From positions 480-64,479 of the forward strand of contig CAZOVA010000001.1 of the NCBI GenBank assembly GCA_964583625.1: 64,000 nucleotides of DNA, in the 5' to 3' direction. Within the stretch, counting starts at the first letter, position 1; every line of letters begins with the position of its first letter. Shown here piece by piece: positions 9,076 to 48,507 of this stretch. The notes below the pieces were generated by a model. It was not told the origin of the DNA. It did no database searches and saw only the letters and a program-made list of their open reading frames with translations. The position numbers and the translations under genes were made by a program. The DNA is from an uncultured Pseudomonadales bacterium (GTDB lineage: Bacteria; Patescibacteriota; Microgenomatia; UBA1400; PJMF01).

Positions 9076-10133
9076 ACTTTCCTTATTTTTTTTCTTATTC
9101 TTTCTATTAATAAATTAATATTATAAAAAAAGGGTCGCATTACTAAGTCCTGAGCATGTAAATAAGCAAAGTCGGTACCCCCAAAACCACGTTTAAAAAC
9201 TGATAGTTTGGCGAAACGATGTTCTGATTCGTTTTCTGGAGCGACTCCCCAAAAATTATAGCGTTTTATACCTCTGCCCTTTGCTTGTTTAATGGCTTCC
9301 CATTGCAAAGCTGCGGCTGCTGGATATTTTCTCGCTAAAGCGGTTGAGGCGCCGTAATGATAAACTGCCTCTTGACCATAAAAAATAATCATCGCTTGAG
9401 CCAAAAGTTCCTCTTGAAAATACGCGCTATAGAGCACAACTTCATGGTCTGGTAAAAAAGCAGCAAACTGTTTCTGCCAATAATTTTCACTAAAAGGAAC
9501 AAAGTTTTGCCGTTTGGCCGTATCTAGTTGCAACTGATAAAATTTGCCGATTTCTTCTTTGACAAGTGAGGGTTGAATTTCAGCCGAACTTTTTACTAGC
9601 ACTCCATCTTTAGCCGCTTTGCGGATTTCATAACGAGTACTTTTACGCATTCCTGCCAAAAGCTCCTCCTCAGTTAGACTCAAATCCAAGCGATGAGTTA
9701 GCTCAGCGTGTAAATGCATTGGTGCATCGACAAAACCCAAGTCTCTAAATAGCTTCCGATTTTGTTGATTATCTGCCAATTGCGGTCGGCAACGCACAAA
9801 AACTATTTTTTCTTTTTTTCCTAAGTCTTTCAAATCTTTTACAAAAGCAATGATTAAATTCTGATCATACCATTCAAAAATAGGACCACCTGGAACCAAA
9901 AAATGATGACCTCTTTTAGCTTCTTCTTTGATAATTAGCATTACGCCTAATAACTCATTTTCATTATAGAATCCACGATAAAAAACTTTTTGTCCCAAAT
10001 TTTTATAAAATTGACCCCAATTCCAAGAGTGTAAAAAGTTGACTTCAGGGTGCTGAACTAAAAAATCTTCCCAGACTTTTTTTTCACTAATTTCTTTAAC
10101 TTTTATATTTGACATAAGTTGATAATCCTGCAA
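9072..10133 (-). CDS. FemAB-family aminoacyl-tRNA-dependent peptidoglycan interpeptide-bridge transferase
   Basis: 353 aa; overall FemX/MurM-like sequence pattern (HSWNWGQF, paired acyltransferase halves). Confidence 0.7.
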   Translation of the reverse strand: MQDYQLMSNIKVKEISEKKVWEDFLVQHPEVNFLHSWNWGQFYKNLGQKVFYRGFYNENELLGVMLIIKEEAKRGHHFLVPGGPIFEWYDQNLIIAFVKDLKDLGKKEKIVFVRCRPQLADNQQNRKLFRDLGFVDAPMHLHAELTHRLDLSLTEEELLAGMRKSTRYEIRKAAKDGVLVKSSAEIQPSLVKEEIGKFYQLQLDTAKRQNFVPFSENYWQKQFAAFLPDHEVVLYSAYFQEELLAQAMIIFYGQEAVYHYGASTALARKYPAAAALQWEAIKQAKGRGIKRYNFWGVAPENESEHRFAKLSVFKRGFGGTDFAYLHAQDLVMRPFFYNINLLIERIRKKIRKV

Positions 10134-11287
10134 ATATTTTTAATATCGGTTGTGGTAATTTCCTGATGTGTGGGCAAGTTAATAATTTCCTCAGTCACCA
10201 AGAATCCACGAGGGAGAGAAGCAAAATTTTCTTGATAGGATCCCTCTTCCCACTGTTTTTTGGGTCCAACTGGACTATCATACCAAAAATCTTGTAGGTG
10301 GTAGCCTTGTTGGCAGAGTTTGTTTAAAATTTCCTCTCTTTTTTCTGCTTTGACTTTAATGGGTAAACGTAAAGCGCTACTACGAACAATTTCCGCCTCT
10401 GTGAGTGACCAAAACAAAAAATCTGATCGTAAATTTTTAAGATAAAGACGAACCTTCTTTTGTCGCTCTTTTTGTTGCTCTTGCGCAACCACTATTCTTT
10501 CTTGTAAAAGTTCTTTTTGCCAAGCCGGTAGCCGATGATAATTCCCTTCGTTTTGGTAATGCATCGGCTGAGATAAAAGACCTAAATAGCGACAGAGAAA
10601 ATGCATCAATTTACCTAAACCAAAAGAATAAGTATGGCGAATCAGCCAGGTTAATAGAGGATAAATACGATCTTTTCTTTGTTGTTGTTTCGGTATTTCT
10701 TTCCAAGATATTTCTCTAAAATTTTTTAGTAAAGCTTGTTCATTAATTCTCAAAATACCACCAGAAACTGAGTCCAAAACCTTATCTTGACTAGCAGAAA
10801 AAATTGCTACAGAACCCAGCTCTCCCGCTTTCGCTCCAGTTTCATAAATCGCTCCCCAAGCGTGAGCATTGTCCTCCACAATCCTAATATTATTCTTTTT
10901 CGCCCAAACGAGAATTGAGGCAATTTTTGGTTGAGAAAAACCAAAAGTATTTTGGATAATTATTGCTTTGAGGTTCTTAGTTTGTTTTTTCAAAGACTCA
11001 AAACTAAAATTAAGTGTTTTGTCAATATCAATCAAAATCGGTTTAAGACCGGCCCAGATAATTGCTTCATAAACAGTCAAACAGGTAAAACCAACTACAG
11101 CTACCCCAGAACCAGGAGGTAAATTTAGAACCTTTAAAGCCGCCAGCAAAGCCTCTCTTCCTTTATAAAAATAGATTGGAGCGGACTTTTCCCTTGAGAC
11201 AACTTTTTGAGTTGTTGCTCTAATGGTTAAAACTCGCCACGCCGCTCGCCAGTCATAATTGGAGCCTAAAGAGTTAAATTTGGCCAT
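10103..11287 (-). CDS. DegT/DnrJ/EryC1/StrS-family PLP-dependent (sugar) aminotransferase
   Basis: 394 aa; fold-type I pattern with a candidate PLP-lysine in FSASQDKVLDSVSGGIL; overlaps both neighbouring genes. Confidence 0.6.
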   Translation of the reverse strand: MAKFNSLGSNYDWRAAWRVLTIRATTQKVVSREKSAPIYFYKGREALLAALKVLNLPPGSGVAVVGFTCLTVYEAIIWAGLKPILIDIDKTLNFSFESLKKQTKNLKAIIIQNTFGFSQPKIASILVWAKKNNIRIVEDNAHAWGAIYETGAKAGELGSVAIFSASQDKVLDSVSGGILRINEQALLKNFREISWKEIPKQQQRKDRIYPLLTWLIRHTYSFGLGKLMHFLCRYLGLLSQPMHYQNEGNYHRLPAWQKELLQERIVVAQEQQKERQKKVRLYLKNLRSDFLFWSLTEAEIVRSSALRLPIKVKAEKREEILNKLCQQGYHLQDFWYDSPVGPKKQWEEGSYQENFASLPRGFLVTEEIINLPTHQEITTTDIKNICRIINLCQI

Positions 11288-16296: not shown

Positions 16297-16370
16297 TGGC
16301 AGGCTCAGAAGGATTCGAACCCTCACTAAAGGTTTTGGAGACCTCTGTACTACCCTTATACTATGAGCCT
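16297..16370 (-). tRNA. tRNA-Trp (anticodon CCA), 3' CCA encoded
   Basis: Reverse complement AGGCTCATAGTATAAGGGTAGTACAGAGGTCTCCAAAACCTTTAGTGAGGGTTCGAATCCTTCTGAGCCTGCCA. The 7-bp acceptor stem, D-arm, anticodon loop CTCCAAA and T-loop GTTCGAATC all fold correctly. Confidence 0.85.
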
Positions 16371-25561: not shown

Positions 25562-26308
25562 TTAATTCAATTTTTTAGTTAAAACTAGAAAAACAAAATA
25601 CGGCAGCACTAGCTGCCGTTTTATTCTTTGTGGTTCTTGAATAAGGCGCCAAAGCCACTCTAAGCCTAAGGCTTGCCAATATTTTGGAGCTCTCTTGATT
25701 TTTCCCACTAGGAAATCAAAACTACCCCCAACGCTCATAGCTATTTTGACTTGGCTCGCGCGCAGTAAGTCTCTATTCTCTACCAGCCACCTTTCTTGCG
25801 CGCTCGCCCCAAAAGCGACCAAAACTATGTCTGGTTTTATATCAGAAATAAACCTTTGTAATAGTTTTGTTTCATTATGATTAATTTTATTTATATTTTT
25901 ATATCCCTGTGTATAGTAAATATTAGTTTGATTATTATTAACAGAAATTTTTAATCGATTATTATTAGCTAAGTGTTGATAGTAGCCTCCGATCAATAAA
26001 GTTTTTAGATTTTTTTCCTTTGCTAGAGATAAAAGATAGTTTACTGTATCTGATCCAGTTAGTCTTTCTTTGACTCCAGCAGCCCAAACTAATCCCTGTC
26101 CGTCTGGTAAAAGGATATCCGCTGCTTGTAAATCTTGATAGAAAAGTTTTTCTTTTTTAGCTAAAACAATTTGCTCTGGATTGGGTGTCATAATTAGCGT
26201 CGCAGACGAAGGCTTTTTGACCGATAAGATTTGATCAAGCCAAAAAAACCAGACCTTTTGGTTTTCGTTCACAATTTGTAAACCATAAAATTCTTTAGTT
26301 TTTAGCAT
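25562..26308 (-). CDS. WecB/TagA/CpsF-family glycosyltransferase (N-acetylmannosaminyltransferase-like)
   Basis: C-terminal GLEWLWRLIQEPQRIKRQ signature of the family; 248 aa. Confidence 0.75.
   Translation of the reverse strand: MLKTKEFYGLQIVNENQKVWFFWLDQILSVKKPSSATLIMTPNPEQIVLAKKEKLFYQDLQAADILLPDGQGLVWAAGVKERLTGSDTVNYLLSLAKEKNLKTLLIGGYYQHLANNNRLKISVNNNQTNIYYTQGYKNINKINHNETKLLQRFISDIKPDIVLVAFGASAQERWLVENRDLLRASQVKIAMSVGGSFDFLVGKIKRAPKYWQALGLEWLWRLIQEPQRIKRQLVLPYFVFLVLTKKLN
25590..25628. terminator. Bidirectional rho-independent terminator
   Basis: aaaacaaaatacggcagcactagctgccgttttatt. Confidence 0.75.
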
Positions 26309-26309
26309 G

Positions 26310-27617
26310 TTATGATCTTTTTTTAAAGAAACCTCTTAGTTTTTCAATAATCAATCTTTTATTATTTTTTTCTCCAGTTTCCACCTCTTGAAATAGCTCT
26401 TTGTCTTCAAGATTGTCCGTAGCTAAAGTCTCTTCTCTATTAGCTCTATCTGAATCAGTTGGCACCTTTTTAACAAAAGCAATTATTTCCTCTCCAAGAT
26501 TGTTTGCCTCTACTTTCCACTGACCTCGGGCATAGTTGTCACGAATCTCACTAATTCCAGGCAGGTTTTTTATCATCTCAAGGTTGATTATTTTTGGCAA
26601 GCTATATTTTACCAAAATTTTTCCTTCTTGATCAACTCGCAAATCATCAATTATTAAGTTTAAGGCATGGCCTCGATCACGAACAACAATTTGTAATAGG
26701 TTCTCCAAAGAGACAATGTCAACAATATATGGAGGTTTCTTTTCCCAACCAGCCTCTCGAAAAGAATCTCCCAGATTCCAGGCCTGCAAAAATTGCTGAT
26801 AAATTTCTTTAGCCATTGATGTCTCTAGACCATAAGCTTTAATACTATGTTTTTCCTCATCACCGTTCTGGTCTGGGCCTTCTTTCCAGGACTCTAATTC
26901 TTCCCTCAAATTCTCATTGTTTAAAACATAGGTGTGAAGCAAATGTAAAAACTCGTTAAAGGTTTTAACTTGAGGTAATAGCTCTAATAAATTAGCTGAA
27001 ATTCGAGAAAATCCATGTATTTTGGTAGCCATCTCTCTAACTAAATCAATGTCCATTCTCGCCATTTGCTGCTCATAAACTTGATATAAATCTTTCCAGT
27101 CCTTAGCTTGCTCAACAGCATTGAGTGTTTCTTTTTTCAAAAAATCTAAATGTTCTTTCAGTGCTTCCTCAGTTTTAGGCGGAACATAACCTGGACCAAA
27201 GGCATTTGACTCAAGATTAAACTTTTTATTAAAAGCTAGTGCTTTTTCTCTCGGTTTTTCTTCCAAAAAAGAAATTTTCTCAATCAAATACGCAAAGTTG
27301 ATAGACAAAGTCTCTAACCCATAAGAGAGACGTTTGGCGTAAAGCTCCTCTCCTCTGTCCAGAAAAGGCATGATCTCTGAAACAGATAATCTGGCTAATA
27401 AAGCCTTAATCTTTTCATCAAGTTTAAAAATTCCTGTAAAAGCCTCATCTGGCGAGATCTTTTTAGTTTCTGCTACTGCTGGGTTCTCCTCATGAGAGCT
27501 AGGGTTATCTGGCCCTTTTTCACCGAAAGAATTTTTTGCTAGAACTATGTTTTCGTTCTGAGGGAAGTAGGCGGATCGTTCTGACATCTTTGCTCTAATC
27601 ATAACAGATTTTTTCAA
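26310..27617 (-). CDS. Hypothetical protein, 435 aa, no recognisable motif
   Basis: Long ORF adjacent to (1-nt gap) and co-oriented with the TagA-like gene. Confidence 0.4.
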   Translation of the reverse strand: MKKSVMIRAKMSERSAYFPQNENIVLAKNSFGEKGPDNPSSHEENPAVAETKKISPDEAFTGIFKLDEKIKALLARLSVSEIMPFLDRGEELYAKRLSYGLETLSINFAYLIEKISFLEEKPREKALAFNKKFNLESNAFGPGYVPPKTEEALKEHLDFLKKETLNAVEQAKDWKDLYQVYEQQMARMDIDLVREMATKIHGFSRISANLLELLPQVKTFNEFLHLLHTYVLNNENLREELESWKEGPDQNGDEEKHSIKAYGLETSMAKEIYQQFLQAWNLGDSFREAGWEKKPPYIVDIVSLENLLQIVVRDRGHALNLIIDDLRVDQEGKILVKYSLPKIINLEMIKNLPGISEIRDNYARGQWKVEANNLGEEIIAFVKKVPTDSDRANREETLATDNLEDKELFQEVETGEKNNKRLIIEKLRGFFKKRS

Positions 27618-27634
27618 TTATAATAAGCCATAGT

Positions 27635-28984
27635 ATGGCTTATCAGGAAATACAAAAAAAACACCCTCGTTTTTTTTACCACCACTACCAACAAAGTTTC
27701 ATTAAAAGAGATTTAGTTCTTTCCTTTTTTTATCAACTAGAAAATGGGCCAGAATTTACTCATCAAGTAATTTTTAGAAAAATTGATCTAGATCTCTGGA
27801 AAAAACAAGACTCTCTCCTAATTAATAATTTAATTTTTAATCTTGGTTTGATCGAGATGCTCTCCTATTGGAAATTGGCTGCCTGCCCGGAGATCGTCAT
27901 TAATTGTGGACAATTAGGAAAAAAACAGGTTTTTTTTTGGCAAGACTTAATTTCCAGGGGAATGAGCGAATATTTTTTCATTAATCAAATAAAAGAATTC
28001 TTTCTAAAGCCTCCTAAACTTACCATTGGACATTTGTCTCCTACAAAAGCCTTAGTTGCTAAAAAAAACTCTCCCGAAATCACCTATGCTGCTAATTTGG
28101 GAGGAGGAAAAGATTCTGTCGTCTTGCTCGCTAGTTTAAAGCAGGCAGGTTGTCAATTCATAAACCTAGTCATTCAGCCAGCTTCACCAGCCGCTGTCAA
28201 AATGGGTACTTTAAGTGGCCAGCCTCTTTATTCAATTGAGCGGATTTTTGACAAAAAATTAACTCTCCTCAATCAAAAAAATTATTTGAATGGACATGTT
28301 CCTTTTAGTGCTTCTGTGGCTTTTATCAATCTCCTTGCTGCTCTTACTTATGGGTTTGATTGTGCTTTGGTTGGAAATGAAAAAAGCGCCGATCAAATTA
28401 GTTTTAAATGGGAGAAAAATGAGATCAATCATCAATATTCAAAGAGCACAAAATTTGAACAGGACTTTGAAAAATATAGATCACAATTTTTAGTCAAAAA
28501 TATAAAATATTATTCTTTGATAAGGAAATTAAATGAGATAGAAATTGCTCACATTTTTTCATCAATACCAAATTTTTTTTCAATATTTAGATCTTGTAAT
28601 CGTGGACAGAGAAATGGGCTTTGGTGTCATCGTTGTGCGAAATGTCTTTTTGTTTTTCTAATTCTCTCACCATTTATTGAAGAAAAAGTTTTAGCTAAAC
28701 AAATCTTCAATCACAATTTGTTTGAAGACTTGTTTTTGTTAAAAGAGTTTAAAAAAATTTTAGGTTTAGCTCCAAATAAACCTTTGGAGTGTGTGGGCAC
28801 AATTGAAGAATCACGGCTAGCTCTCTATTTAACTATTAAAAAATATCAGCAAGAAAAGCGGTCTTTGCCAGTTTTGGTACAAAAAGTAAAAAATCAATTT
28901 GAAAAACTTAATATCAACTGGCAAGAAGAAGAAAGTCGACTACTGAGGTATAATATAGACGATCTAGATTGGCCAAAATGCTGA
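27635..28984 (+). CDS. PP-loop (adenine-nucleotide alpha-hydrolase-type) ATPase with a CX9CX2CX2C cluster; candidate MurL-like epimerase (hypothesis)
   Basis: PP-loop variant ANLGGGKDS; Cys cluster SCNRGQRNGLWCHRCAKC; 16-nt overlap with, and translational coupling to, the downstream murD. Confidence 0.5.
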   Translation: MAYQEIQKKHPRFFYHHYQQSFIKRDLVLSFFYQLENGPEFTHQVIFRKIDLDLWKKQDSLLINNLIFNLGLIEMLSYWKLAACPEIVINCGQLGKKQVFFWQDLISRGMSEYFFINQIKEFFLKPPKLTIGHLSPTKALVAKKNSPEITYAANLGGGKDSVVLLASLKQAGCQFINLVIQPASPAAVKMGTLSGQPLYSIERIFDKKLTLLNQKNYLNGHVPFSASVAFINLLAALTYGFDCALVGNEKSADQISFKWEKNEINHQYSKSTKFEQDFEKYRSQFLVKNIKYYSLIRKLNEIEIAHIFSSIPNFFSIFRSCNRGQRNGLWCHRCAKCLFVFLILSPFIEEKVLAKQIFNHNLFEDLFLLKEFKKILGLAPNKPLECVGTIEESRLALYLTIKKYQQEKRSLPVLVQKVKNQFEKLNINWQEEESRLLRYNIDDLDWPKC

Positions 28985-30414
28985 AATTAAGTAAAACTCA
29001 ACAGAGAAAGCTTCTTTCTCTAGAGGATAAGAGAATTCTGATTCTGGGAGCGGGAAGAGAGGGTCTTTCAAACTACCTTTTTTTAAGAAAAGTTTTTCCT
29101 CAAAAAGAACTGACTTTAGCTGATAGGATTCCTCAAAAAAACCTTAATGCTCAGTGGAAAAAGATTTTTGCTCAAGACTTTAGACTAAAAAAGCAACTAG
29201 GAGCAGAAAATTATCTGGAAAACTTATCAGCTTTCGATCTTATTTTTCTCACACCAGGCATTCCTCCAGCCCTTGATCAATTAGTCAAGGCTAAAAATCT
29301 TGGAGTTAAATTTTCCTCTAACACTGAACTTTTTCTAAAATTAGTAAAAGGTAAGACTATTGGCGTAACTGGAACCAAAGGGAAAAGCACCACTAGCAGT
29401 TTAATTGCTCACGTTTTACGTCAGGGAGGCAAAAAAACTCAGTTAGTGGGGAATATCGGGGCTCCTGCTTTGGACTTTCTCTCTCAAGTTGACAGTAAAA
29501 CCTATATTGTTTTAGAAATGTCCGCTCAACAATTACAAGCTCTTAAACAGAGCCCAAATTATGCGGTAGTACAAAATATTACTTCAGAGCATCTTGATTA
29601 TTTCAATGATAATCAAGCCTATATTGAAGCCAAAACTCCAATTTGTCGTTTTCAAAAACCAAAAGACTTCTTTATTTATAGCGATGAATTCAAAACCTCG
29701 AACTATTTTTCTACCCTCACTAAGGCAAAAAAACTTTGTTTTGGCCTTAAGAATGAGCCTGGACATCTGGCTTTTACTGAGGGAAAGGCAGTTTTTTATC
29801 GCGGCAAAGATGAGTCTCTTCCTGTTTCCCTTGCTGCTATTAAAAAAATTAAACTAATGGGTAAACACAATCTCTACAATATTTTTCCTGCAATTCTAAT
29901 TGCTAAAAGTTTGAAGATTACAAACGAACAAATAGAGTCTGCTTTATATAGTTTTACTCCTTTAAGACACCGTTTAGAGTATGCTTGTACAGTAAATGAT
30001 GTTTCATATTATAATGATAGTCTTTCAACCAATCCACAAGCCGCCATTGCTGCTTTAAAGGTTTTTGCTAAAAAAGACATCATCTTAATGGCGGGAGGTT
30101 ATGAAAGACATCAAGATTTTACCAAGTTTGCTCAGGCAATTCTAAAATATAAGGTTCATGTCGTTATCTTGTTCCCCACCACTGGAAAAAGAATTAAAAA
30201 AAATATTATTGATTTAGCGATTAAAAAAAAGCTTCTCGTTCCTAAGTTTTTTTCTGTTAATAGTATGCAAGAAGCAGTTTCCTTAGCTCATCGGGAAGCC
30301 AAACCTAAAGATATAGTCCTATTAAGCCCTGGGGCAGCTAGTTTTGACATCTTCAAAGACTATGCTGACAGAGGAGACCAATTTTGCCAATTGGCAAAAA
30401 GTTTGTTAAAATAA
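28969..30414 (+). CDS. murD: UDP-N-acetylmuramoylalanine--glutamate ligase (MurD family)
   Basis: N-terminal Rossmann ILILGAGREG; P-loop GVTGTKGKSTT; C-terminal LSPGAASFDIFKDYADRGDQF matches the MurD end motif. Confidence 0.85.
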   Translation: MAKMLKLSKTQQRKLLSLEDKRILILGAGREGLSNYLFLRKVFPQKELTLADRIPQKNLNAQWKKIFAQDFRLKKQLGAENYLENLSAFDLIFLTPGIPPALDQLVKAKNLGVKFSSNTELFLKLVKGKTIGVTGTKGKSTTSSLIAHVLRQGGKKTQLVGNIGAPALDFLSQVDSKTYIVLEMSAQQLQALKQSPNYAVVQNITSEHLDYFNDNQAYIEAKTPICRFQKPKDFFIYSDEFKTSNYFSTLTKAKKLCFGLKNEPGHLAFTEGKAVFYRGKDESLPVSLAAIKKIKLMGKHNLYNIFPAILIAKSLKITNEQIESALYSFTPLRHRLEYACTVNDVSYYNDSLSTNPQAAIAALKVFAKKDIILMAGGYERHQDFTKFAQAILKYKVHVVILFPTTGKRIKKNIIDLAIKKKLLVPKFFSVNSMQEAVSLAHREAKPKDIVLLSPGAASFDIFKDYADRGDQFCQLAKSLLK

Positions 30415-31784
30415 TCCTCATGACCAAAGTTCCAAAAGAGATAGAAAAATCCAAAGAGAAAAAAGTCCATAATTGGGCTGGAATTATTTACACTTTGCTT
30501 TCAGCAATTATTATCATTCTCGGAACTTTTATTGCCATTCGCTGGGCCAAAGGAGACTTTCGTCTTGATGAAAGCAGCCAGGTTTTATCAAGAGAAACAG
30601 GCCTTTTGCATGCTACTTCTACTCCGCAAGGCGCCCAAGTTTATATCAATGATATCCTCACCTCTGCCACTGACAACATCATTTATCTAGCTCCTGGAGA
30701 GTATAATATTAGAATTCAAAAGGATGGCTACAGTCCCTGGGTTAAAAAAATAAAAATAGAAAAATCTCTAGTTTCTGCAGCTAATGCTATTCTTTTTCCT
30801 TACTCCCCTAGCTTGACTAGCCTTACTTTTACTGGGGTAAAAAACATTTCCGTCTCTCCTAATAAACAAAAGTTAATTTTTTATACTGACAATATTAGCG
30901 CCAAAAACAAAAACGGTCTTTATTTACTTGACTTGAGTAATAGTTCTAAAAGTCCGACCCAAATTACCGACAATGATCAAGAGTTCTCTCTAGAAGAGGC
31001 TAAATTTATTTGGTCTCCAGACAGTAATCAGGTTTTAGTTTTTTCTCCAGAAAGAACTTTTTTATTAAATGTTCATAGCTATACAGCTCTCCAAAGTTCT
31101 CCGAGTGTCGCTTTTCAACTTTCGAATATTCTCTTTGGCTGGGAAGAAGAAATTTTAGCAAAAGAGAAACAATACCTAGAAAAAATCCCCAAGATTGCTC
31201 TCCAAACTATTCTCAATCAAGGAGTGGACTTTTATCTTTCCAATGATAATCAAAAATTACTTTATACTGCCACTGGTTCTGCTGTTTTAGCGGAAAATTT
31301 GATAGCCCCTCTCCCCGCTTCCAATAATTATCCAGAAAAAAGAATCTTTTCTCCTGGAGAAGTATATGTCTATGATAGTTATGAAGATAAAAACTTCCTT
31401 CTTGATCAAGAATCTAGTCAATCAGGGAAGCATTTATTAACTGCTGTCCAAAACTTGACGCCAATGATTACTAAACCAGTTTTAGGTAAATCTTTACAAG
31501 TAAAAAATAATCAAAATCAGACTATTGAGAATTTCAACCATTATTATGGAGACTATCGGACCAAGGGTTGGCAGTGGTTGCCAAATTCTACTCATTTAGT
31601 AAAAATAAAAGAGGATAAAGTGGTGATTACCAGTTACGATAGTACTAATCCTACCGTCATTTATTCTGGAGACTTAAAAGACAACTTTGTTTTACCCTAT
31701 CCAGATGGAAATAAAGTTTTGATTTTAACTTCCTTTACCCCAGACTCGCCTGCTAATATTTATGCTATTGAATTAAAAAAATAA
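30384..31784 (+). CDS. Membrane-anchored PEGA-domain protein with a C-terminal beta-propeller-like region
   Basis: PEGA-like segment PQGAQVYINDILTSATDNIIYLAPGEYNIRIQKDGYSPW; N-terminal TM. An alternative start at ATG 30419 is possible. Confidence 0.5.
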   Translation: MPIGKKFVKIILMTKVPKEIEKSKEKKVHNWAGIIYTLLSAIIIILGTFIAIRWAKGDFRLDESSQVLSRETGLLHATSTPQGAQVYINDILTSATDNIIYLAPGEYNIRIQKDGYSPWVKKIKIEKSLVSAANAILFPYSPSLTSLTFTGVKNISVSPNKQKLIFYTDNISAKNKNGLYLLDLSNSSKSPTQITDNDQEFSLEEAKFIWSPDSNQVLVFSPERTFLLNVHSYTALQSSPSVAFQLSNILFGWEEEILAKEKQYLEKIPKIALQTILNQGVDFYLSNDNQKLLYTATGSAVLAENLIAPLPASNNYPEKRIFSPGEVYVYDSYEDKNFLLDQESSQSGKHLLTAVQNLTPMITKPVLGKSLQVKNNQNQTIENFNHYYGDYRTKGWQWLPNSTHLVKIKEDKVVITSYDSTNPTVIYSGDLKDNFVLPYPDGNKVLILTSFTPDSPANIYAIELKK

Positions 31785-32029
31785 TTTGTCGAGATGTTCG
31801 GACTGATATTAAACTTCCTGAGTGTCTAGACACTATCACAGCCAACCAAGAAATGGGCAAAAACTAGAAGCAATTAGAGATCAGAGACTCTTAATGAGAA
31901 TGAAGGACTTGGTTTTAAAATTTAATAGATTGCTAATAATCTGCGGTTTAGAAGAAATCTGATCTTTCTTTTACCGGAGGCTTTTGATAGTCTATAATAG
32001 ACATTATTAACACATAAGAGGGGTTAAAA

Positions 32030-32212
32030 ATGAAAGAAGTAATGACAACTCAGCCAATAACAATTGAACAATTTTCTACTCAATTTGAAGAGATTGAGGG
32101 ACAAGCGGAGCAACTTAAAGCGGTTGTTTCTAGAATTAAGGAAATCCCTTGGGGTAAAGGTAGAACTTGTGAAGAGGTTTTGACAAAAAAATGTTGGAAC
32201 TTGTACAGGTAA
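32030..32212 (+). CDS. Hypothetical 60-aa ORF, probably the N-terminal part of a frameshifted gene continuing in 32220..32639
   Basis: Good RBS (agagggg) 8 nt upstream; ends just after an A7 run at 32185-32191. Confidence 0.3.
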   Translation: MKEVMTTQPITIEQFSTQFEEIEGQAEQLKAVVSRIKEIPWGKGRTCEEVLTKKCWNLYR

Positions 32213-32219
32213 GCATAAG

Positions 32220-32639
32220 TTGTTGGAAGCGGTGCTTGATCGCTTGAATATTCCCCACGAAAGTGTGGTCAGTACTTTTCGTTGGGAAAAACAAGGATTG
32301 GTATTACCTGACAATCTCCAGTCAATATTGGGTGAGGGTGGCTGGGAACATGGTCATAATTGGGTAAAAATTACTGACCCAGAAAATCAATTTGATATAG
32401 ACTTAACTTGGGATAGTCCAATGGCACCTTATGGCTTTCTGGTTTTACCAGATGAATGGGACGGAAAATCATCATTTATTGGTTTGAAAAGTTATGAACA
32501 GAGGTGGAATGGTGTTAGTATTGATCAAATGAAGGAGCAGTTGATTGGTAATTTAACAACAGAACAAAGAGAGAGAAGAGAAAGATTTGTAGAGAATTTA
32601 ATTGAATGGTCTAATGAACTGCATCGGGGCAAAAAATAA
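32220..32639 (+). CDS. Hypothetical protein (TTG start in the ORF track); its reading frame is open back to 32184, consistent with fusion to the upstream ORF by a +1 shift at the A7 run
   Basis: 139 aa; no recognised motif. Confidence 0.4.
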   Translation: MLEAVLDRLNIPHESVVSTFRWEKQGLVLPDNLQSILGEGGWEHGHNWVKITDPENQFDIDLTWDSPMAPYGFLVLPDEWDGKSSFIGLKSYEQRWNGVSIDQMKEQLIGNLTTEQRERRERFVENLIEWSNELHRGKK

Positions 32640-32762: not shown

Positions 32763-32835
32763 TCGGAGTGACAGGACTCGAACCTGCGGCCTCTGCGTTC
32801 CGAACACAGCGCGCTACCATCTGCGCTACACTCCG
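32763..32835 (-). tRNA. tRNA-Pro (anticodon CGG), CCA not encoded
   Basis: Reverse complement CGGAGTGTAGCGCAGATGGTAGCGCGCTGTGTTCGGAACGCAGAGGCCGCAGGTTCGAGTCCTGTCACTCCGA folds with a 7-bp acceptor stem, D-arm GCGC/GCGC and anticodon loop TTCGGAA. Confidence 0.85.
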
Positions 32836-32885: not shown

Positions 32886-32957
32886 TACTCCTACCAGGAA
32901 TCGAACCTGGATTTGCCGCTTAGGAGGCAGCCGTTCTGTCCGTTGAACTATAGGAGT
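32886..32957 (-). tRNA. tRNA-Arg (anticodon CCT); followed by CCG rather than CCA
   Basis: Reverse complement ACTCCTATAGTTCAACGGACAGAACGGCTGCCTCCTAAGCGGCAAATCCAGGTTCGATTCCTGGTAGGAGTA; anticodon loop CTCCTAA. Confidence 0.8.
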
Positions 32958-33984: not shown

Positions 33985-34056
33985 TGCTTCTGGCGGGAAT
34001 CGAACCCACATCAAAGGTTCCGGAAACCTTCGTGCTATCCTTTGCACCACAGAAGC
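33985..34056 (-). tRNA. tRNA-Arg (anticodon CCG), CCA not encoded
   Basis: Reverse complement GCTTCTGTGGTGCAAAGGATAGCACGAAGGTTTCCGGAACCTTTGATGTGGGTTCGATTCCCGCCAGAAGCA; anticodon loop TTCCGGA. Confidence 0.8.
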
Positions 34057-37746: not shown

Positions 37747-38715
37747 TTAATGGTCAGCAAGGTTGTTCTTTTTAGTCTCTATCAGGAACTGGTTATCTTC
37801 AAGAACTAGAGTTATTTGCCCGTCTTGGTCAGTCCTTAAAATTTGACTATTAATCTCCTTTAATCTTTCTAATACTTCTATGCTTGGATGTCCAAATCGG
37901 TTTTTTTCACCAACACTAATCAAAGAAATTTCGGGTCTAACAATGGATAAAAAATGAGCTGAAGTTGATGTTTTTGACCCATGATGGGCTATTTTTAGCC
38001 AATTACTTTTCTTTAGCAATCCAGAGTTTATAATTGCTAATTCTACATCTTGGTTTATATCCCCAGTTAATATAATATTTTTGTGAACAATATTCATATT
38101 TATAACTATAGATCCATTATTATTTTCACTATCTATATGATCACTTTTTTTTAAAATATCCCATAATATGGATAATTCATACTTATAGGAGAAAATTTCT
38201 CCAGGCTTATTTTTTTGATCATGCCACAAAATTTCTAAGCAAATCGTTTCCGCTTCACACCATTTTTGCGCCAAAACAGGGTAAACAACTTCCAGTCCTT
38301 CTGTCTCTATTTTTTTCCAGACTAGCTCATAAAAGTCTAAAAATAAATTTGTCTTCTTAAAAACATCGTTTATTAATAGTTTTTTAACTCGGTAATTCTT
38401 AAAAACATCTATTAATCCAGACAGATGATCAGAGTCAGCATGAGTTAAGACCACTAGTTCTATTTCTTTGTCACTCTTTGGGATCATTTTACTCAAGCAG
38501 TGGACAATTGATGCGTCTGGACCTCCATCAATTAGAATTTGTGTCCTCTCTTGGGTAATTAAAATAGCATCTCCTTGACCAACATTGCATAAAGTAACTC
38601 TGGGGGAGTCATCTAATAAAAGCCTTTTTTTATCTGAAAGTGTGACGCAAAAAGCATAAAGCCAGAACAAGATTAATATCCAGACAAGAACTTTAGACTG
38701 AGAAAGTTTCCACAT
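37747..38715 (-). CDS. comEC: ComEC/Rec2 C-terminal metallo-beta-lactamase domain protein
   Basis: MBL motif VLTHADSDH and downstream HHGS; overlaps the upstream ComEC membrane ORF by 23 nt. Confidence 0.7.
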   Translation of the reverse strand: MWKLSQSKVLVWILILFWLYAFCVTLSDKKRLLLDDSPRVTLCNVGQGDAILITQERTQILIDGGPDASIVHCLSKMIPKSDKEIELVVLTHADSDHLSGLIDVFKNYRVKKLLINDVFKKTNLFLDFYELVWKKIETEGLEVVYPVLAQKWCEAETICLEILWHDQKNKPGEIFSYKYELSILWDILKKSDHIDSENNNGSIVINMNIVHKNIILTGDINQDVELAIINSGLLKKSNWLKIAHHGSKTSTSAHFLSIVRPEISLISVGEKNRFGHPSIEVLERLKEINSQILRTDQDGQITLVLEDNQFLIETKKNNLADH

Positions 38716-40078
38716 AAGTAAAACGATTAATAGTCCTTTTCCTATATAAATAAAGCCCTAAGAACAAGAAAAAATAATAAAAGAAGATTATATTTTTCGG
38801 TATTTCCCAATCAAAAGGCAAAAGTCCTCCAAAAAAACCAGAATAAAAATAGAATATTTTATAAAATAAAGACGAAAGTTTCTCAAGATAAAAGGCTAAA
38901 GGGAAAATAATAAGTTTGTCAACAATTTCTTCTAAAAAATTAGGAGTAAAAAGAAAAACAACTAAAAAATTCGTGCTTAAGACAACAATTAGCGTAATTA
39001 AAAAGGAAAATACTAGATTAGAAATTATGCCAGACCAAGCAATTTCATGAAAAAAGGCTATTACAATCGGTAAAGTAAATAATTGCGCGGCTGAAGAAAC
39101 CAGAATGGCCTCTTTAAGACCTTTAATCATTAATTTAAACCAAGACCTTCTCCTATTATATAAATCTAAGCTAATAATTTCATTTTTTATTTCTTCAATT
39201 TTATGAAAATTATTGCTAACAAGAATGACTCCAAGAGTAGCAAAAAAACTTAAAAGAAAGCCCACATTTGTTATATTTAAGATCATTTTATTAAACATTA
39301 TTACAAAAGCTAAAAATAAACCCAAAAAACTATTTGTCTGTTTATAAAAAAAATACCTACCAATAAAGGAAAAAGTCCACATTATCCCAGCTCTCAAAAC
39401 AGATAATGGACTGCCAACCAATAAAATATAAAATATTAAACCAGACAGAGAAAGACAAAGAAACACTTTTCTATTATTAATAGGCTTGCAAATCGCTCCC
39501 CAAACTGACATAATTAAACTCAAATGGAATCCAGATACAGCAACCATATGAGATAGCCCTATTTCAGATATTTGTTGCTTAAGCTCTTGATCAAAGTCAA
39601 AAGCCCTATTTCCTAGAGTAAGAGAAGTAATGAGTTGAAAACTGTCATTTTGAAAGTGACTTCTAAGAAAAAAAAGGAGTTTTTGTTGAATGTCATCAAC
39701 TCTTTTTTGCAAAATAATAAATTTTTTGTTCATTAAATCAAAAAACGAAAGTTTATTTTTATCTTTTATAAAAAATTCTTCTACATCAATATTATTTTGA
39801 TAATTAATTTTATTATCAATCAAACTATTTACAGTGCCAATTATCGTATAATGTTCTCCAATTTTCATGTTTTTACAATCCTCTATTTTGAAACTAAAGC
39901 CTGGTTTGATCTGAAAATAACAATTTTGAGGAAGAGAAAGCAAAAAAAATTCGAGCTCAATTTTTTGTCGATGATGATAAATTAATTTTCGTCTTATTAT
40001 TATATAGTTACTTAAAGATAAGGTAATTAAAATAAAAATAAATATCAAACTATATTTTTTAGTTCTATTTTTTTTCAT
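38693..40078 (-). CDS. comEC: ComEC/Rec2 N-terminal polytopic membrane (competence channel) domain protein
   Basis: Competence-domain signature GLSHMVAVSGFHLSL; many TM segments. Confidence 0.7.
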   Translation of the reverse strand: MKKNRTKKYSLIFIFILITLSLSNYIIIRRKLIYHHRQKIELEFFLLSLPQNCYFQIKPGFSFKIEDCKNMKIGEHYTIIGTVNSLIDNKINYQNNIDVEEFFIKDKNKLSFFDLMNKKFIILQKRVDDIQQKLLFFLRSHFQNDSFQLITSLTLGNRAFDFDQELKQQISEIGLSHMVAVSGFHLSLIMSVWGAICKPINNRKVFLCLSLSGLIFYILLVGSPLSVLRAGIMWTFSFIGRYFFYKQTNSFLGLFLAFVIMFNKMILNITNVGFLLSFFATLGVILVSNNFHKIEEIKNEIISLDLYNRRRSWFKLMIKGLKEAILVSSAAQLFTLPIVIAFFHEIAWSGIISNLVFSFLITLIVVLSTNFLVVFLFTPNFLEEIVDKLIIFPLAFYLEKLSSLFYKIFYFYSGFFGGLLPFDWEIPKNIIFFYYFFLFLGLYLYRKRTINRFTYVETFSV

Positions 40079-40116
40079 AATATTTTTTATTTTTATAAAA
40101 CGAAACTTTCTCTAAT

Positions 40117-40758
40117 CTATAGAGAGAGCACTCCCTTATTATCAATAAAAATGCTTTCAGTAATAATTTTTTTACTGATTAGCTCTTCTACCTCATGATA
40201 GGGTCTACCATCAATTATTTTCTGGGCTCTTACTTCTCCTATTCCTGTAAGTGTCATCAATTCACTTAGTGGGGCGTTATTAATCGACACTAAATCATCT
40301 ATTTCAGCCTTTTTATTCTCAACTCCAATTACTTCATCTTTAAAAGATAAAACTTCGTTTTTATAGGGAATATAGTATTTTTTGCCATCACTAAGCTTTT
40401 CAGCTAAATTTAAATTCTTTTGCAGCCACCAATTATCAACTTCCGAAGTTTTAAATCCTCCTGCGAGAACAATTAAATCTGCTAGTCTGGAGGTGCTCTC
40501 CAATTGATAGGCTCCTGGATAATTAATCCCTCCGCCTATATCGACTACGATCAAGGAACTTAAAAAATTTGATTTTATAGTCTTGATGTTGTCTTTTGGT
40601 TCTTTTTCTAAAGTAAAAATTTCTTGAGAAAAGATGGGTGTCTGATTAATGAAAAAGGTAAGGCTAAACATAACTAATCCTAAGAGGATAAGGGTTGTGG
40701 CTGCGCTAATTAGAATTTTTTTTCTATTTTCCTTGTATTTATTTAGAAAATTTCGCAT
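40117..40758 (-). CDS. comEA: ComEA-like DNA receptor (SLBB plus helix-hairpin-helix)
   Basis: C-terminal HhH INNAPLSELMTLTGIGEVRAQKIIDGRP; N-terminal TM anchor. Confidence 0.8.
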   Translation of the reverse strand: MRNFLNKYKENRKKILISAATTLILLGLVMFSLTFFINQTPIFSQEIFTLEKEPKDNIKTIKSNFLSSLIVVDIGGGINYPGAYQLESTSRLADLIVLAGGFKTSEVDNWWLQKNLNLAEKLSDGKKYYIPYKNEVLSFKDEVIGVENKKAEIDDLVSINNAPLSELMTLTGIGEVRAQKIIDGRPYHEVEELISKKIITESIFIDNKGVLSL

Positions 40759-40877
40759 ATCTTTTGCCTTTCTTAAGATAAGATAGAGTAAAAAAATAAC
40801 AAAAATGTGATAATTCTTTTAAAAGCTAAGTTTTCACCTTTTTTTGGGTATAAATATTTGTCATTATCTTTTTATTT

Positions 40878-40935
40878 TTATTAACGCATAATTAATGCAA
40901 TATTAACGCATAATCTAGAAAGATTATTAATGCAA
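40878..40935. repeat. Short direct repeats TTAACGCATAAT (x2) and ATTAATGCAA (x2) inside a 1.2-kb AT-rich non-coding region; a related aacgcattaaatgcat lies at about 41722
   Basis: tttattaacgcataattaatgcaatattaacgcataatctagaaagattattaatgcaaa. Confidence 0.5.
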
Positions 40936-41942
40936 AAATACAAATTTTATTATTAATAGATCAAAATTAACTTAATTGGTTGATTAGAAAAAGTAAAAAA
41001 AATAAACCAAATAAAAGCCTGAATGAGGGTTTTATTTATTTAAAAAATGTAAAAAGCATAAATACCAGACGAAAACAAGGTTGGACGGACGTTCTGATCG
41101 CTAAACTACGATTTTTTACCTTAAAGAAAAAAGCGAATAGAATATTAATAAAATACGAAAATAAATTAAGGTTTCTAACAAAAATTTTTATAATAAAAAA
41201 AGATATTTTTTCATTGATTTTTAGCACTAATTATCAAAAATTTTTATATAGCACAGATGTTATTTGTTTGCTAATAAGGGAGGAAGAAAAAATAATAGAA
41301 AAACATTTTATTTTAAACAATTTTCGCTTTTAATAAAAATAAGCTCAGTTATTCTAAGGGAGAACCTTAAAGGATTTTAGCATAAAAAGTTTTTGTTCTA
41401 TTGCTTTCTTCCCTTTACTCAGGTTAAGCCTAAGATTTTGACCTTTTTTATTAAAAGAACTGCTTATTTAGACTTAAAGACCTGCTTTCACCTCTCATAG
41501 ATCCTATTTAGAGAGTTCTTATTAATCTGTATTTAGACAAAATTTTAATTTAACCGTATATTTGTTTTTGATTAAAAAAATAATTTTTTATTGGAAGTCA
41601 TTGTTCATTATCAATTTTTTTAATTAATAATTTAAATTTTCAATTAAATTATTAAATTATTTTTTGCGATAATATTTTAAAACTAGGCTATAAATAATCT
41701 CAAAAATTGCTTTAATAAAATTAACGCATTAAATGCATGTAAAAACTTATTAAATAAAATTAATAAATAAGCTAAATTAATAAAATTTTGTGACGAAAAT
41801 ATTTTAAGCGGTAAAAAATAGTACGACTTGTAATAAAAAGATTAATTTGCTAGAATGAATTGTTTGAAAATTTAATAGGGTTTTACTAAACTTTATGAAT
41901 AATTGATTATTAAAGATTATTAAATAACAATTTTTTATCAAA

Positions 41943-43826
41943 ATGAAACAAAAAACACTAATTAATTCTTTCCTCTCCTTATCTAGTTTGGCCGCTTTTC
42001 TATTGATAGTGGCGACCTTAATTATTACTTTTTTCTCTCCTCCCTTTTTTACTCAAGAACCGGCGAACTTAGCTTTTTTATTCTCATTTCTTGGTGGCGC
42101 TTTAATGGCAATTTTATTGTTTGTCACCACTATAAGAAGAAAAAAAATCTTGCTTAATATCACCCCGCTCTCTCCTACCCTAATTTACCTCACTTTGACC
42201 GTTTTATTGGCTGTTTTTATCAAACATTCTCACTCTCCCACTCTCTCCTTTCTTGGTTTGGCTGGTCTATTGATTAATTTTTCCCTACTTAGTCTTTTGT
42301 CTAGCGCTCTAATTAAAAAAAATAATGCCTTAATCGTAGTAAAAATAATTTTAGCTTTTGCTCTTCTTTCTACTTTAATACTACTGGCACAAAGCTTAGG
42401 TATTACATCTAATTTGAAGATAGGACAATTCTTCAATCAAGACCCATTAATGTTAATTGGGGTTATAGTTTTAGGCTTAGCAACAGTTTTTTTCCGTTAT
42501 TTTAAAAAAAATAGACTCTCTTCTAGAGCCCTGATTCTAGTTCCCATTTTCATTTTAGGTTTGGCTGCTGGCATCTTCAATTTTTATCAACAAAAAAACT
42601 TCCAGAGTTTAGATTTGTCAACTAGCATAGAGGTTTTAAACAAAAGTCTTACTTTCTCAGACAGTTCAACCTTGCCCTTTTCTCAGATACTTTTTGGCCA
42701 AAAACATCGAACTTACACTGATTTGTTCTTCAATCTTTCTCCAAAAAGCTTTAGTTCCAACTTTTCAGGAGCAATCCAGTCTTTTAACCTAGCTCTTACT
42801 GTTCTACCTCTTTTAGGCTTGGTAGTTTTTGTTTCTTGGCTAGCTTTAGTTTTAAAGACTGTATTTTTAGCTCTCGACAAAAAAAATAAAGAGAGAAACT
42901 ATTTGTTTTTTATTTTATTGGCTAGTTTTGCTATCCAACTTTTTACTCCTATCTATCCTTTCTTCTTAATTTTGCAGGCCTTTATTATTGCTTTCACTAC
43001 GGACAAGAATAAAGAAACAGTCATAAACCTTAATGTTGCTACCACTTTTACCAAAAAAGACGGGCAAAAAGAAATCTCTAAAAAGGAAAAAGGCTCTTTT
43101 GTTTTAGCTCTGTTTTTTTTAATTATTCTTTTACCTTTTGGCTTTTCTCTCGTCAGGATAGGAAAAAGTTACTTAGGTTATTTTTACGCTCAAAAAGCTC
43201 TCACCTATGATTATGATTTGCAGAGCTTTGATCGATATGCCCAAAAGGCACAAAGGATGGCTCCCTTTATCGATTATTTCAATCGATTGATGGCAATCTC
43301 TAGTTTGGAAAAACTGGTAACAACTATTCAACAAGACCCTCAAAAAACAAATTTGGAAGTAGAACGAGATCTGGCACAACAGGCAATTGAGTTTAGTCAA
43401 AAAGCAGCTGACATTTCTCCTCTTCATGCTCCCAATCTGATTACCAAAGGGGCTATTTACCAGGAAATTAGTCAATATAACTCCAATAAAGAACAGACTA
43501 ATAACCAGGCGGTGAGTTCTTATGCCTCTGCTATTCTCACGCAACCATATAATCCAAATCTCTATTTACAACTAGCCTCTCTTTATCAACTTAATGAGGA
43601 GTTAGATTTGGCTCTCAGTTTATGTCAAGAAGCTTTGAAAGTGCAAAATGACTATCTGCCAGCTGTTTACCAACTAGCCCAGCTTTATCAACTAAAAGGT
43701 GAAAAGCTGCTAGCCGAAAAAACTTATATTCAAGTTCAGCAGTTGTTAGATCAAAAAAGTCCAGATTATCAAACAAATTTTCAACTAATTCAATATCACC
43801 TTGATCAATTGAGGGCTGATGACTAA
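41943..43826 (+). CDS. Polytopic membrane protein with C-terminal TPR repeats (O-antigen-ligase-like / Wzy_C-type arrangement, low confidence)
   Basis: About 10 TM segments in the first 400 aa; C-terminal repeats such as AVYQLAQLYQLKGEKLLAEKTYIQ. Confidence 0.45.
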   Translation: MKQKTLINSFLSLSSLAAFLLIVATLIITFFSPPFFTQEPANLAFLFSFLGGALMAILLFVTTIRRKKILLNITPLSPTLIYLTLTVLLAVFIKHSHSPTLSFLGLAGLLINFSLLSLLSSALIKKNNALIVVKIILAFALLSTLILLAQSLGITSNLKIGQFFNQDPLMLIGVIVLGLATVFFRYFKKNRLSSRALILVPIFILGLAAGIFNFYQQKNFQSLDLSTSIEVLNKSLTFSDSSTLPFSQILFGQKHRTYTDLFFNLSPKSFSSNFSGAIQSFNLALTVLPLLGLVVFVSWLALVLKTVFLALDKKNKERNYLFFILLASFAIQLFTPIYPFFLILQAFIIAFTTDKNKETVINLNVATTFTKKDGQKEISKKEKGSFVLALFFLIILLPFGFSLVRIGKSYLGYFYAQKALTYDYDLQSFDRYAQKAQRMAPFIDYFNRLMAISSLEKLVTTIQQDPQKTNLEVERDLAQQAIEFSQKAADISPLHAPNLITKGAIYQEISQYNSNKEQTNNQAVSSYASAILTQPYNPNLYLQLASLYQLNEELDLALSLCQEALKVQNDYLPAVYQLAQLYQLKGEKLLAEKTYIQVQQLLDQKSPDYQTNFQLIQYHLDQLRADD

Positions 43827-47688: not shown

Positions 47689-48507
47689 TTATTCTTCATT
47701 AATCAGGTTGGCGTAAACGAAAAGTCTTAGGTCATTGTCCCACCAAAAAATACAGGTATACATTACCAGATCTGCTTCATTCTCGGTAATACTAGTGGCT
47801 TTCTCTATTTTGTAAATTTGATAAAACCACTGTTTCTGATTGTCCGTGATAATTACTTGGTCTCCAATATTTACCTTGTCTAAATTTTGAAAAGTTTGAC
47901 TATTCTGTTTTTTTGAGGTCAACATATTGTAGTGATGTCCAGCTAAAATAACGGGTTCTTCCCAATGGCCATATTTATTAAATTCAGGGTAAGCATAAAT
48001 TCCCTGATCAAGAATCTTTTTTACTTCTTTATCATCCTCAATGTTTTGATTGGTGAGAATTTCTGCATCAATTCCTGCCGAATCAATTTTTAACCATTGC
48101 CCTGCAGGAGCATTAAGGTCATATTTTGGTTTAATTTTTCTAGCCGCTACCGCCGTCGCTTCCATCTCAGGCACAACTGACAAAATTATTTGCTCCGAAC
48201 CGTGAGAATTTTCGTTTTGATATAATTCTCCAGCTTTAATCAAACTATTATTAAGATTGGGGAAAAGTTTAAATGTTAGCTGGGGTAAAAAATAGACAGC
48301 AAAAGACAAAATTCCTAAAAATAAAAATATATTCAAAGAGGCTTTGATGACCGTTCTTTTCCAACTACTTTTTTTCTCGATATTTTGCGCTGGAATTGTA
48401 GTAAAAAATTGCTCATTAAAAAATAACTGACGCATTGTCGGGAAGCGCTGGTGAAGAAAGTTTTGATTAGGTTCTAGTCTGGAACTGATCGCAAGCATAT
48501 CGATCAC
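47689..48507 (-). CDS. Sortase-family transpeptidase
   Basis: Catalytic triad context: ILAGHH (His), LVMYTC (Cys), downstream LRLFV (Arg); N-terminal TM. Confidence 0.65.
   Translation of the reverse strand: MIDMLAISSRLEPNQNFLHQRFPTMRQLFFNEQFFTTIPAQNIEKKSSWKRTVIKASLNIFLFLGILSFAVYFLPQLTFKLFPNLNNSLIKAGELYQNENSHGSEQIILSVVPEMEATAVAARKIKPKYDLNAPAGQWLKIDSAGIDAEILTNQNIEDDKEVKKILDQGIYAYPEFNKYGHWEEPVILAGHHYNMLTSKKQNSQTFQNLDKVNIGDQVIITDNQKQWFYQIYKIEKATSITENEADLVMYTCIFWWDNDLRLFVYANLINEE

Follow-up and report, generated by a model that had tools for sequence, protein, structure and literature searches.

A probable MurD2/MurL route to peptidoglycan D-glutamate encoded by two overlapping genes in a Patescibacteria-like genome

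Xanthomonas oryzae lacks murI and dat, and complementation of D-glutamate auxotrophy by its pathway requires two genes: one for MurD2, a ligase that barely uses D-glutamate, and one for MurL (XOO_1319), which yields the D-glutamate form of the precursor using Mg2+ and one ATP, makes AMP and works from L to D only (PMC5808125; PMC8788868). The stereospecificity of MurD2 is set by E197 and R358, equivalent to D182 and K348 of Escherichia coli MurD, and the E197D/R358K variant is a D-glutamate ligase. Conversely, E. coli MurD carrying K319T gains some L-glutamate activity, and the D-glutamate ligase MurD of Streptococcus mutans, with Arg at position 348, accepts a little L-glutamate (PMC8788868). 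The analysis presented here concerns a 64,000-nucleotide stretch of contig CAZOVA010000001.1 (hereafter the window), in which two overlapping genes, murL and murD, very probably encode this MurD2/MurL route to the D-glutamate of peptidoglycan, as judged from their sequences. The pair is a new and distant member of the known MurL/MurD2 system.

Reviews by the discoverers describe MurL without any known domain, and because the pathway was thought to be confined to Xanthomonas, Stenotrophomonas and a few other genera, it has been advocated as a target for narrow-spectrum antibiotics (PMC5808125; PMC8788868). The 2018 review mentions orthologs of low similarity from cyanobacteria, an amoeba and a fungus pathogenic to plants (PMC5808125), while the 2021 review places the pathway in few genera, namely some Gamma- and Alphaproteobacteria and rare actinomycetes (PMC8788868). 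The open literature on MurL/MurD2 yielded nothing on the Candidate Phyla Radiation (CPR). Going beyond the literature found are the assignment of a QueC-like fold to MurL, the breadth of its distribution, the frequency of MurL and MurD fusions, and the co-variation of Lys or Arg at MurD position 348 with murL in syntenic CPR loci.

The 449-residue product of murL matches the NCBIfam model for MurL, NF041275, over nearly its full length (E=2.7e-61, 207 bits; residues 16-404 on positions 11-397 of the 447-position model). In addition, precomputed hits in a public index place the Pfam pair MurL_N (PF26299) and MurL_epimerase_C (PF26298) on the exact protein. These matches bear out the original prediction, made from the sequence alone, of a MurL-like epimerase. 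Comparison with XOO_1319 and its partner XOO_1320 was made through the NCBIfam model and the published residue numbers (PMC8788868). The window protein resembles Xanthomonadales MurL in its two-domain architecture, its length and its position directly upstream of a MurD-type ligase. It differs in being distant, in belonging to a CPR-like host with a small genome, outside the taxa named in the reviews, and in being known here from sequence. Among 35 diverse members of a family alignment, all match NF041275 (best E=1.7e-85), and the sole other hit is a weak match to the PP-loop of TtuA in three of them. A local Pfam scan of the window protein returned a single weak hit, to DUF6395, over its Cys cluster.

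The presence of a PP-loop motif, and fold neighbours that include tRNA-modification enzymes, QueC and Cap9, could be taken to mean that the open reading frame (ORF) encodes a tRNA- or nucleoside-modifying enzyme of the QueC, TilS, TtuA or MnmA type, or a Cap9-like defence protein, with murD beside it by chance. The profile comparison proposed with the original prediction matched MurL, and no Pfam or NCBIfam model for QueC, TilS, ThiI or MnmA matches the 449-residue protein, which speaks against the tRNA-enzyme alternative that this prediction had itself raised. The TtuA similarity is weak and limited to the three alignment members, different phyla retain the linkage or fusion to murD, and both MurL_N and the invariant motifs are peculiar to the MurL family. 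A search with PADLOC gave no match for the protein, on which ground a Cap9 role in a cyclic-oligonucleotide-based anti-phage signalling system (CBASS) was rejected. A chance neighbour of this kind is hardly credible and effectively refuted.

The adjacent ligase scores 336 bits against the NCBIfam murD model TIGR01087, above the cutoff of 212 bits, has Mur_ligase_M and Mur_ligase_C domains and a GTKGKS P-loop, and shares 29% identity with E. coli MurD. Residues were mapped on the basis that the literature numbering of MurD leaves out Met1. On this mapping, Glu204 and Arg377 occupy the two positions that determine stereospecificity (Table 1), A454 and F456 correspond to A414 and L416 of E. coli MurD, and a Phe is found, as in MurD2, at the position of X. 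oryzae F435. Solved D-glutamate ligases carry Asp, Lys and Lys at positions 182, 348 and 319 (E. coli numbering, used below) in E. coli, Thermotoga maritima and structure 7sir, and Thr, Arg and Lys in Streptococcus agalactiae. The window MurD thereby appears as MurD2-type at both stereo-determining residues, and this substrate-pocket comparison supports the earlier proposal that it would be an L-glutamate-specific ligase. It is, like X. oryzae MurD2, a three-domain Mur ligase encoded immediately after murL; unlike that enzyme, it passes the generic murD equivalog and is publicly annotated as a D-glutamate ligase. As had also been noted, it is the sole Mur-ligase ORF in the window, where no second one was found.

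The 120 closest homologs of the window MurD served as a control sample for these residues. All 120 carry Glu at 182 and a residue other than Lys at 319, and 10 of them keep Lys at 348. Four of these ten (P0186, P0222, P0170 and P0213) belong to loci that share the gene backbone of the window and lack murL. This backbone runs from a gene for a membrane protein or threonyl-tRNA synthetase through L10, L7/L12, HTH_17, WecG (on the opposite strand) and murD to MreB and PEGA, and in all four of the Lys348 loci WecG is directly followed by murD. Two homologs with Arg348, chosen independently, have murL directly upstream: P0158, with a 4-nucleotide overlap and the same backbone as the window, and P0219, in a 7-Mb genome. 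Altogether, loci with this backbone were seen without murL (L087, L089, L090 and L091) and with it (the window, L092, L003, L004, L013 and L016). Arg348 tracks the presence of murL in the CPR relatives, in a sample that is small (four against two picks, plus 74 found via MurL) and fully consistent. Glu182 and the loss of Lys319, on the other hand, do not discriminate between loci with and without murL in the CPR clade, and the replacement of K319 by Ile or Leu was downgraded as a MurD2 marker because CPR MurDs without MurL also have no Lys there. Within CPR, the pattern suggests that murL came or went at one constant position of the chromosome.

The association between the two genes extends far beyond this clade. 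A scan of one genome per species of the GTDB found at least 600 MurL-encoding stretches, and the locus counts given here refer to the best 80. Of these 80 loci, all from other species, 74 link murL to murD: in 71, murL is followed by a separate murD on its own strand, two are fusions and one has a murD fragment at a contig end. Of the remainder, three reach a contig end just after murL and three have no murD in the flank. An overlapping start is possible at about two-thirds of the measurable murL/murD junctions. Among the MurL-linked MurDs (n=74, the window included), Arg348 and Ile or Leu at 319 are found in 74/74, and Glu182 in 70/74. The labels of the best 80 loci cover Patescibacteria (Roizman-, Gottesman-, Pace-, Nealson-, Kerfeld- and Saccharibacteria, and Microgenomates), Lachnospiraceae and other Clostridia, Bacteroidales, Acidobacteria, Rokubacteria and Actinomycetota. 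Furthermore, a profile search of 1.84 billion representatives returned 3,575 clusters (50% identity) at E<=1e-3 and 1,666 at E<=1e-30. The murL-murD pair is far more widespread than the reviews state.

Fusion of the two genes is frequent. Among the top 144 representatives at 50% identity, 31 (22%) are fusion proteins, 29 in the order MurL-MurD and two in the order MurD-MurL, and the signature of Glu, Ile or Leu, and Arg at positions 182, 319 and 348 is found in 26 of the 31. The fusion proteins are 620-1,070 residues long (for example L051 6530-8851, L077 9932-12688, P0244, P0245, P0251 and P0285). Such MurL-MurD fusions form a Rosetta-stone link between both activities and are unmentioned in the reviews (PMC5808125; PMC8788868). 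In one locus (L088 2515-7743, on a 7.03-Mb contig), murL and murD are followed by genes for an MR_MLE enolase-superfamily protein and an M20 peptidase. The MR_MLE family includes L-Ala-D/L-Glu epimerase, and this gene order could link the pathway to muropeptide recycling.

The existence of syntenic relatives that do without murL at the locus, and the ability of the S. mutans D-glutamate ligase to take some L-glutamate in spite of its Arg348, would also be expected if the window MurD were relaxed or preferred D-glutamate and MurL served for proofreading or salvage of misincorporated L-glutamate, rather than as the main source of D-glutamate. Set against this are the need of X. oryzae for both genes and the reluctance of MurD2 to use D-glutamate, as well as the tight overlap of the genes, their frequent fusion and the strict co-variation of Arg348 with murL, the last three of which fit an obligatory two-step pathway better. 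A salvage role is accordingly considered improbable, and an obligatory MurD2/MurL pathway is preferred.

A phmmer search at E<=10 detected no MurI-like ORF in the window or in about 1.3 Mb of sequence flanking MurL loci, and no Asp_Glu_race or Aminotran_4 domain occurs among the ORFs of 215-394 residues screened in the window and 10-kb flanks. Like the glutamate racemase MurI, MurL supplies the D-configuration of the glutamate in peptidoglycan. MurI uses two catalytic cysteines, and the invariant C386 of MurL could act as a base. Unlike MurI, which is independent of cofactors, reversible, active on free glutamate and unrelated in fold, MurL acts on a nucleotide-linked dipeptide, consumes ATP and is unidirectional.

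No solved MurL structure was found by sequence searches of the PDB, and a PDB search with a single MurL sequence gave nothing meaningful. A profile search of the PDB returned only PP-loop enzymes, all at the GGKDS motif (TtuA, E=6e-5), and the PP-loop of the window protein aligns in profile with those of TtuA, NcsA, NAD synthetase (NadE), GMP synthase (GuaA) and MnmA. An AlphaFold2 model built with the 35-sequence alignment has a predicted local distance difference test score (pLDDT) of 95 and a predicted template modelling score (pTM) of 0.93. Foldseek agrees with the profile search, with structural neighbours of the model that include QueC, Cap9 and the nitrile synthetase ArtA. The modelled Rossmann-like alpha/beta fold is superimposable on QueC, and the SGGxDS PP-loop is present after the first beta-strand as a GGGKDS variant. 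A solved relative was sought for the N-terminal domain and none emerged; this domain may bind the UDP-MurNAc-dipeptide substrate.

Conservation was assessed in 263 homologs that are 29-59% identical to the window MurL. The PP-loop residues G157-G158-K159-D160-S161 are conserved at 98-100%, while position 156 is Gly in 223 of the homologs and Ser (giving SGGKDS) in 34; the window protein has Gly in place of this first Ser. The four cysteines C321, C331, C334 and C337 are 100% conserved. The original prediction had pointed to both the PP-loop and the CX9CX2CX2C cluster, each of which is present (at residues 153-161 and 321-337), and since they are conserved across the 263 homologs they are not chance matches. 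H221, N265-H266-Q267, K270 and E275 are essentially invariant, and the polar motifs in which they lie (Table 1) are candidates for substrate-binding or catalytic residues. A fifth cysteine, C386, is found in 263/263 homologs next to the nearly invariant K382, E385 and G388, and is a candidate general base or acid for exchange of the C-alpha proton.

The Cys cluster CNRGQRNGLWCHRCAKC is the only segment of MurL that hhalign aligns to E. coli QueC, opposite TCYNGFKGDGCGHCAAC (CX8CX2CX2C), at an overall probability of 3%, an alignment that serves here only to locate the matching segment. The cluster is probably a structural zinc site like that of QueC, and a TtuA- or NcsA-like Fe-S cluster is possible. 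Compared with QueC, Cap9 and ArtA, MurL has no significant sequence-family match, the Pfam and NCBIfam models included, and it carries an extra N-terminal domain of about 135 residues and a C-terminal helical extension. In addition, the adenylate would serve stereoinversion followed by hydrolysis in MurL, and not attack by ammonia. MurL probably resembles QueC in its mode of action and is not a member of the QueC family.

QueC-family enzymes begin by adenylating a carboxylate of their substrate. A QueC-like adenylation of this kind is consistent with the ATP-to-AMP stoichiometry of MurL and with the adenylation hypothesis of its discoverers. In the mechanism proposed here, the MurD2-type ligase would add L-glutamate, as its residues suggest, and MurL would then epimerise it, as homology to the characterised MurL suggests. 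The QueC-like PP-loop domain would bind ATP through the GGKDS loop and MurL would adenylate the free alpha-carboxylate of the terminal glutamate, with release of pyrophosphate. Adenylation would acidify the C-alpha proton, possibly by way of an oxazolone formed with the carbonyl of the preceding alanine, and an invariant base (candidates are C386, H221, H266 and K270) would take this proton from one face and deliver it to the other. The D-acyl-adenylate would then be hydrolysed, freeing the product and AMP and making the reaction irreversible. The overlapping frames, and the fusions in other lineages, may hold both activities in a fixed ratio, so that the L-glutamate intermediate, whose extension presumably has to await epimerisation, would not accumulate.

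The closest structural relatives, QueC and ArtA, turn acyl-adenylates into amides and nitriles, the window protein lies under the MurL equivalog cutoff, and the search for murI covered the window and flanks. From these facts it might be argued that this MurL homolog applies another adenylation chemistry to the muropeptide precursor, such as amidation of the alpha-carboxylate of glutamate to iso-glutamine, and that the window MurD is an ordinary D-glutamate ligase with a racemase encoded elsewhere. Such a reaction is as doubtful as a salvage role: the catalytic-looking residues are invariant across the family, including the members that match the model at E=1.7e-85, which speaks for one common reaction; the L-glutamate-specifying pair of Glu and Arg, the latter tracking murL, is present in the partner MurD; and the locus has no conserved partner gene for a glutaminase or an ammonia donor.

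The epimerase reading can be stated in its fullest form as follows: MurL is a PP-loop enzyme that adenylates a carboxylate as QueC does and contains a Cys4 site for a structural metal, and its fifth invariant Cys is the likely proton-transfer residue; MurD2/MurL is a major D-glutamate route in Patescibacteria, Lachnospiraceae and other Clostridia, Bacteroidales, Acidobacteria and further groups, often as one fusion protein; thousands of its ligases are misannotated as D-glutamate ligases; and in CPR the system has been gained or lost at a fixed site together with a switch between Lys and Arg in MurD. As a whole this account is put forward tentatively, as a plausible conjunction that falls somewhat short of probable.

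Several points weigh against the MurD2/MurL reading of the gene pair itself. The 207 bits of the window MurL do not reach the NCBIfam equivalog cutoff of NF041275 (700 bits), so that its orthology rests on synteny and residues. That model was built for Xanthomonadales only, with the cutoff set on this clade, and the lower score is a matter of phylogenetic distance and not of a different family. Arg348 by itself is not diagnostic, as streptococcal D-glutamate ligases carry Arg there, and Glu182 with a residue other than Lys319 also occurs in MurL-less CPR MurDs, where these may partly be features of the clade. The window MurD has Ala in place of P433 of X. oryzae MurD2, a position without effect on stereospecificity (PMC8788868). 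The search for murI, a D-amino-acid aminotransferase and a second murD was confined to the window and flanks. Finally, the adenylation of the alpha-carboxylate, the binding of zinc and the assignment of a catalytic base are putative.

The original prediction had the last 16 nucleotides of murL overlapping the start of murD. An overlap exists with either possible start, and its length depends on which is used: a TTG at 28969 gives 16 nucleotides, whereas the ATG at 28978 gives 7. The public-record gene callers place the start at this ATG, and the N-termini of close homologs (M-x-L-T-K-T-Q-x-R) fit it as well, which makes a 7-nucleotide overlap the most likely from sequence. The PEGA-domain protein gene begins 5 nucleotides after the murD stop and is probably co-transcribed with the pair. 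It is syntenic in CPR relatives with and without murL, and does not belong to the conserved MurL/MurD2 unit. A scan of 27000-32300 for promoters and terminators did not rise above shuffled sequence for promoters (17 against 13.2 expected) and gave no convincing operon boundary. The short gap between the divergent genes contains a perfect TATAAT (27618-27623), about 11 nucleotides before the ATG of murL, and murL may have a very short 5' leader or none.

On the other side of this gap, an ORF of 435 residues (26310-27617, minus strand) stands between WecG and murL and diverges from murL over 17-32 nucleotides. No Pfam or PADLOC hit was obtained for it, and no homolog was found in about 90 related loci. 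It was considered as a third component of the pathway and rejected on these grounds, and it appears to be a lineage-specific orphan gene.

Table 1. Positions of the features of the window, counted from its first letter.
Feature	Position	Strand	Remarks
murL	27635..28984	+	449 aa, ATG start; NF041275, Pfam MurL_N + MurL_epimerase_C, AlphaFold2 pLDDT 95
N-terminal domain (MurL_N)	27635..28040	+	about residues 1-135; mixed beta/alpha; boundary approximate; from model secondary structure and Pfam label
PP-loop motif ANLGGGKDS	28091..28117	+	residues 153-161; SGGxDS variant (ATP-pyrophosphatase)
Polar motifs NGHxP (219-223), N248/E249/S251, NHQYSK (265-270), E275	28289..28459	+	near-invariant in 263 homologs
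Cys cluster CNRGQRNGLWCHRCAKC, CX9CX2CX2C	28595..28645	+	residues 321-337; C321, C331, C334, C337
KPLECVGT motif	28778..28801	+	contains fifth invariant cysteine C386
murL/murD overlap ATGCTGA	28978..28984	+	murD ATG 28978-28980, murL TGA 28982-28984; 7 nucleotides
murD (MurD2-type)	28978..30414	+	TIGR01087, Mur_ligase_M/C domains, 29% identity to E. coli MurD
MurD Glu204	29587..29589	+	equivalent to E. coli D182 and X. oryzae MurD2 E197
MurD Leu349	30022..30024	+	equivalent to E. coli K319
MurD Arg377	30106..30108	+	equivalent to E. coli K348 and X. oryzae MurD2 R358
PEGA-domain protein gene	30420..31784	+	starts 5 nucleotides after murD stop
FemAB-family peptidyltransferase	9075-10133	-	
DegT/DnrJ/EryC1 aminotransferase	10106-11287	-	
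WecG/TagA glycosyltransferase	25562-26308	-	
Sortase	47692-48507	-	
tRNA genes (4)	16300-16370, 32763-32835, 32886-32957, 33985-34056	-	only Rfam matches in window

Elsewhere in the window, the FemAB, DegT, sortase, WecG/TagA and PEGA genes are consistent with a peptidoglycan-containing, Gram-positive-like envelope, and the first four of these suggest an interpeptide bridge, anchored surface proteins and a secondary polymer. Rfam gave no rRNA match in the window and no riboswitch near the murL-murD pair. Best-named relatives and shared synteny indicate that the organism is probably a member of Patescibacteria, Microgenomates- or Pacebacteria-like. Several third-party annotation labels of metagenome-assembled genomes (MAGs), such as 'uncultured Pseudomonadales', 'Vitreimonas sp.' and 'Enterobacteriaceae', stand on contigs with a CPR-like gene order and look wrong. 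The GC content of the window is about 35%, and it falls to 0.25-0.29 over 38001-42000, against about 0.35 elsewhere. On the minus strand, ComEC is apparently split into overlapping Lactamase_B (37747-38715) and Competence (38693-40078) ORFs, adjoined by a ComEA-like gene with SLBB and HHH domains (40117-40758, minus strand).

Annotation of this gene pair has consequences for how such genomes are read. Among the records listed, homologs of MurL that are named by NCBI appear as 'hypothetical protein' and every named MurD2-type partner as a D-glutamate ligase; some JGI annotations, as well as Pfam, already capture the MurL family. With labels of this kind, metabolic reconstructions of CPR and of gut anaerobes would report a false gap at murI or the wrong substrate. 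The roughly 3,575 clusters at 50% identity, which include Lachnospiraceae and Bacteroidales labels from gut MAGs, change the assessment of the pathway as a narrow-spectrum target. Loci of CPR with and without murL amount to a natural experiment on the switching of MurD stereospecificity. For the enzyme itself, the QueC-like PP-loop fold and the invariant residues provide a short list of mutagenesis targets for the mechanism of MurL, and the QueC-like reading, if true, gives MurL a structural basis.

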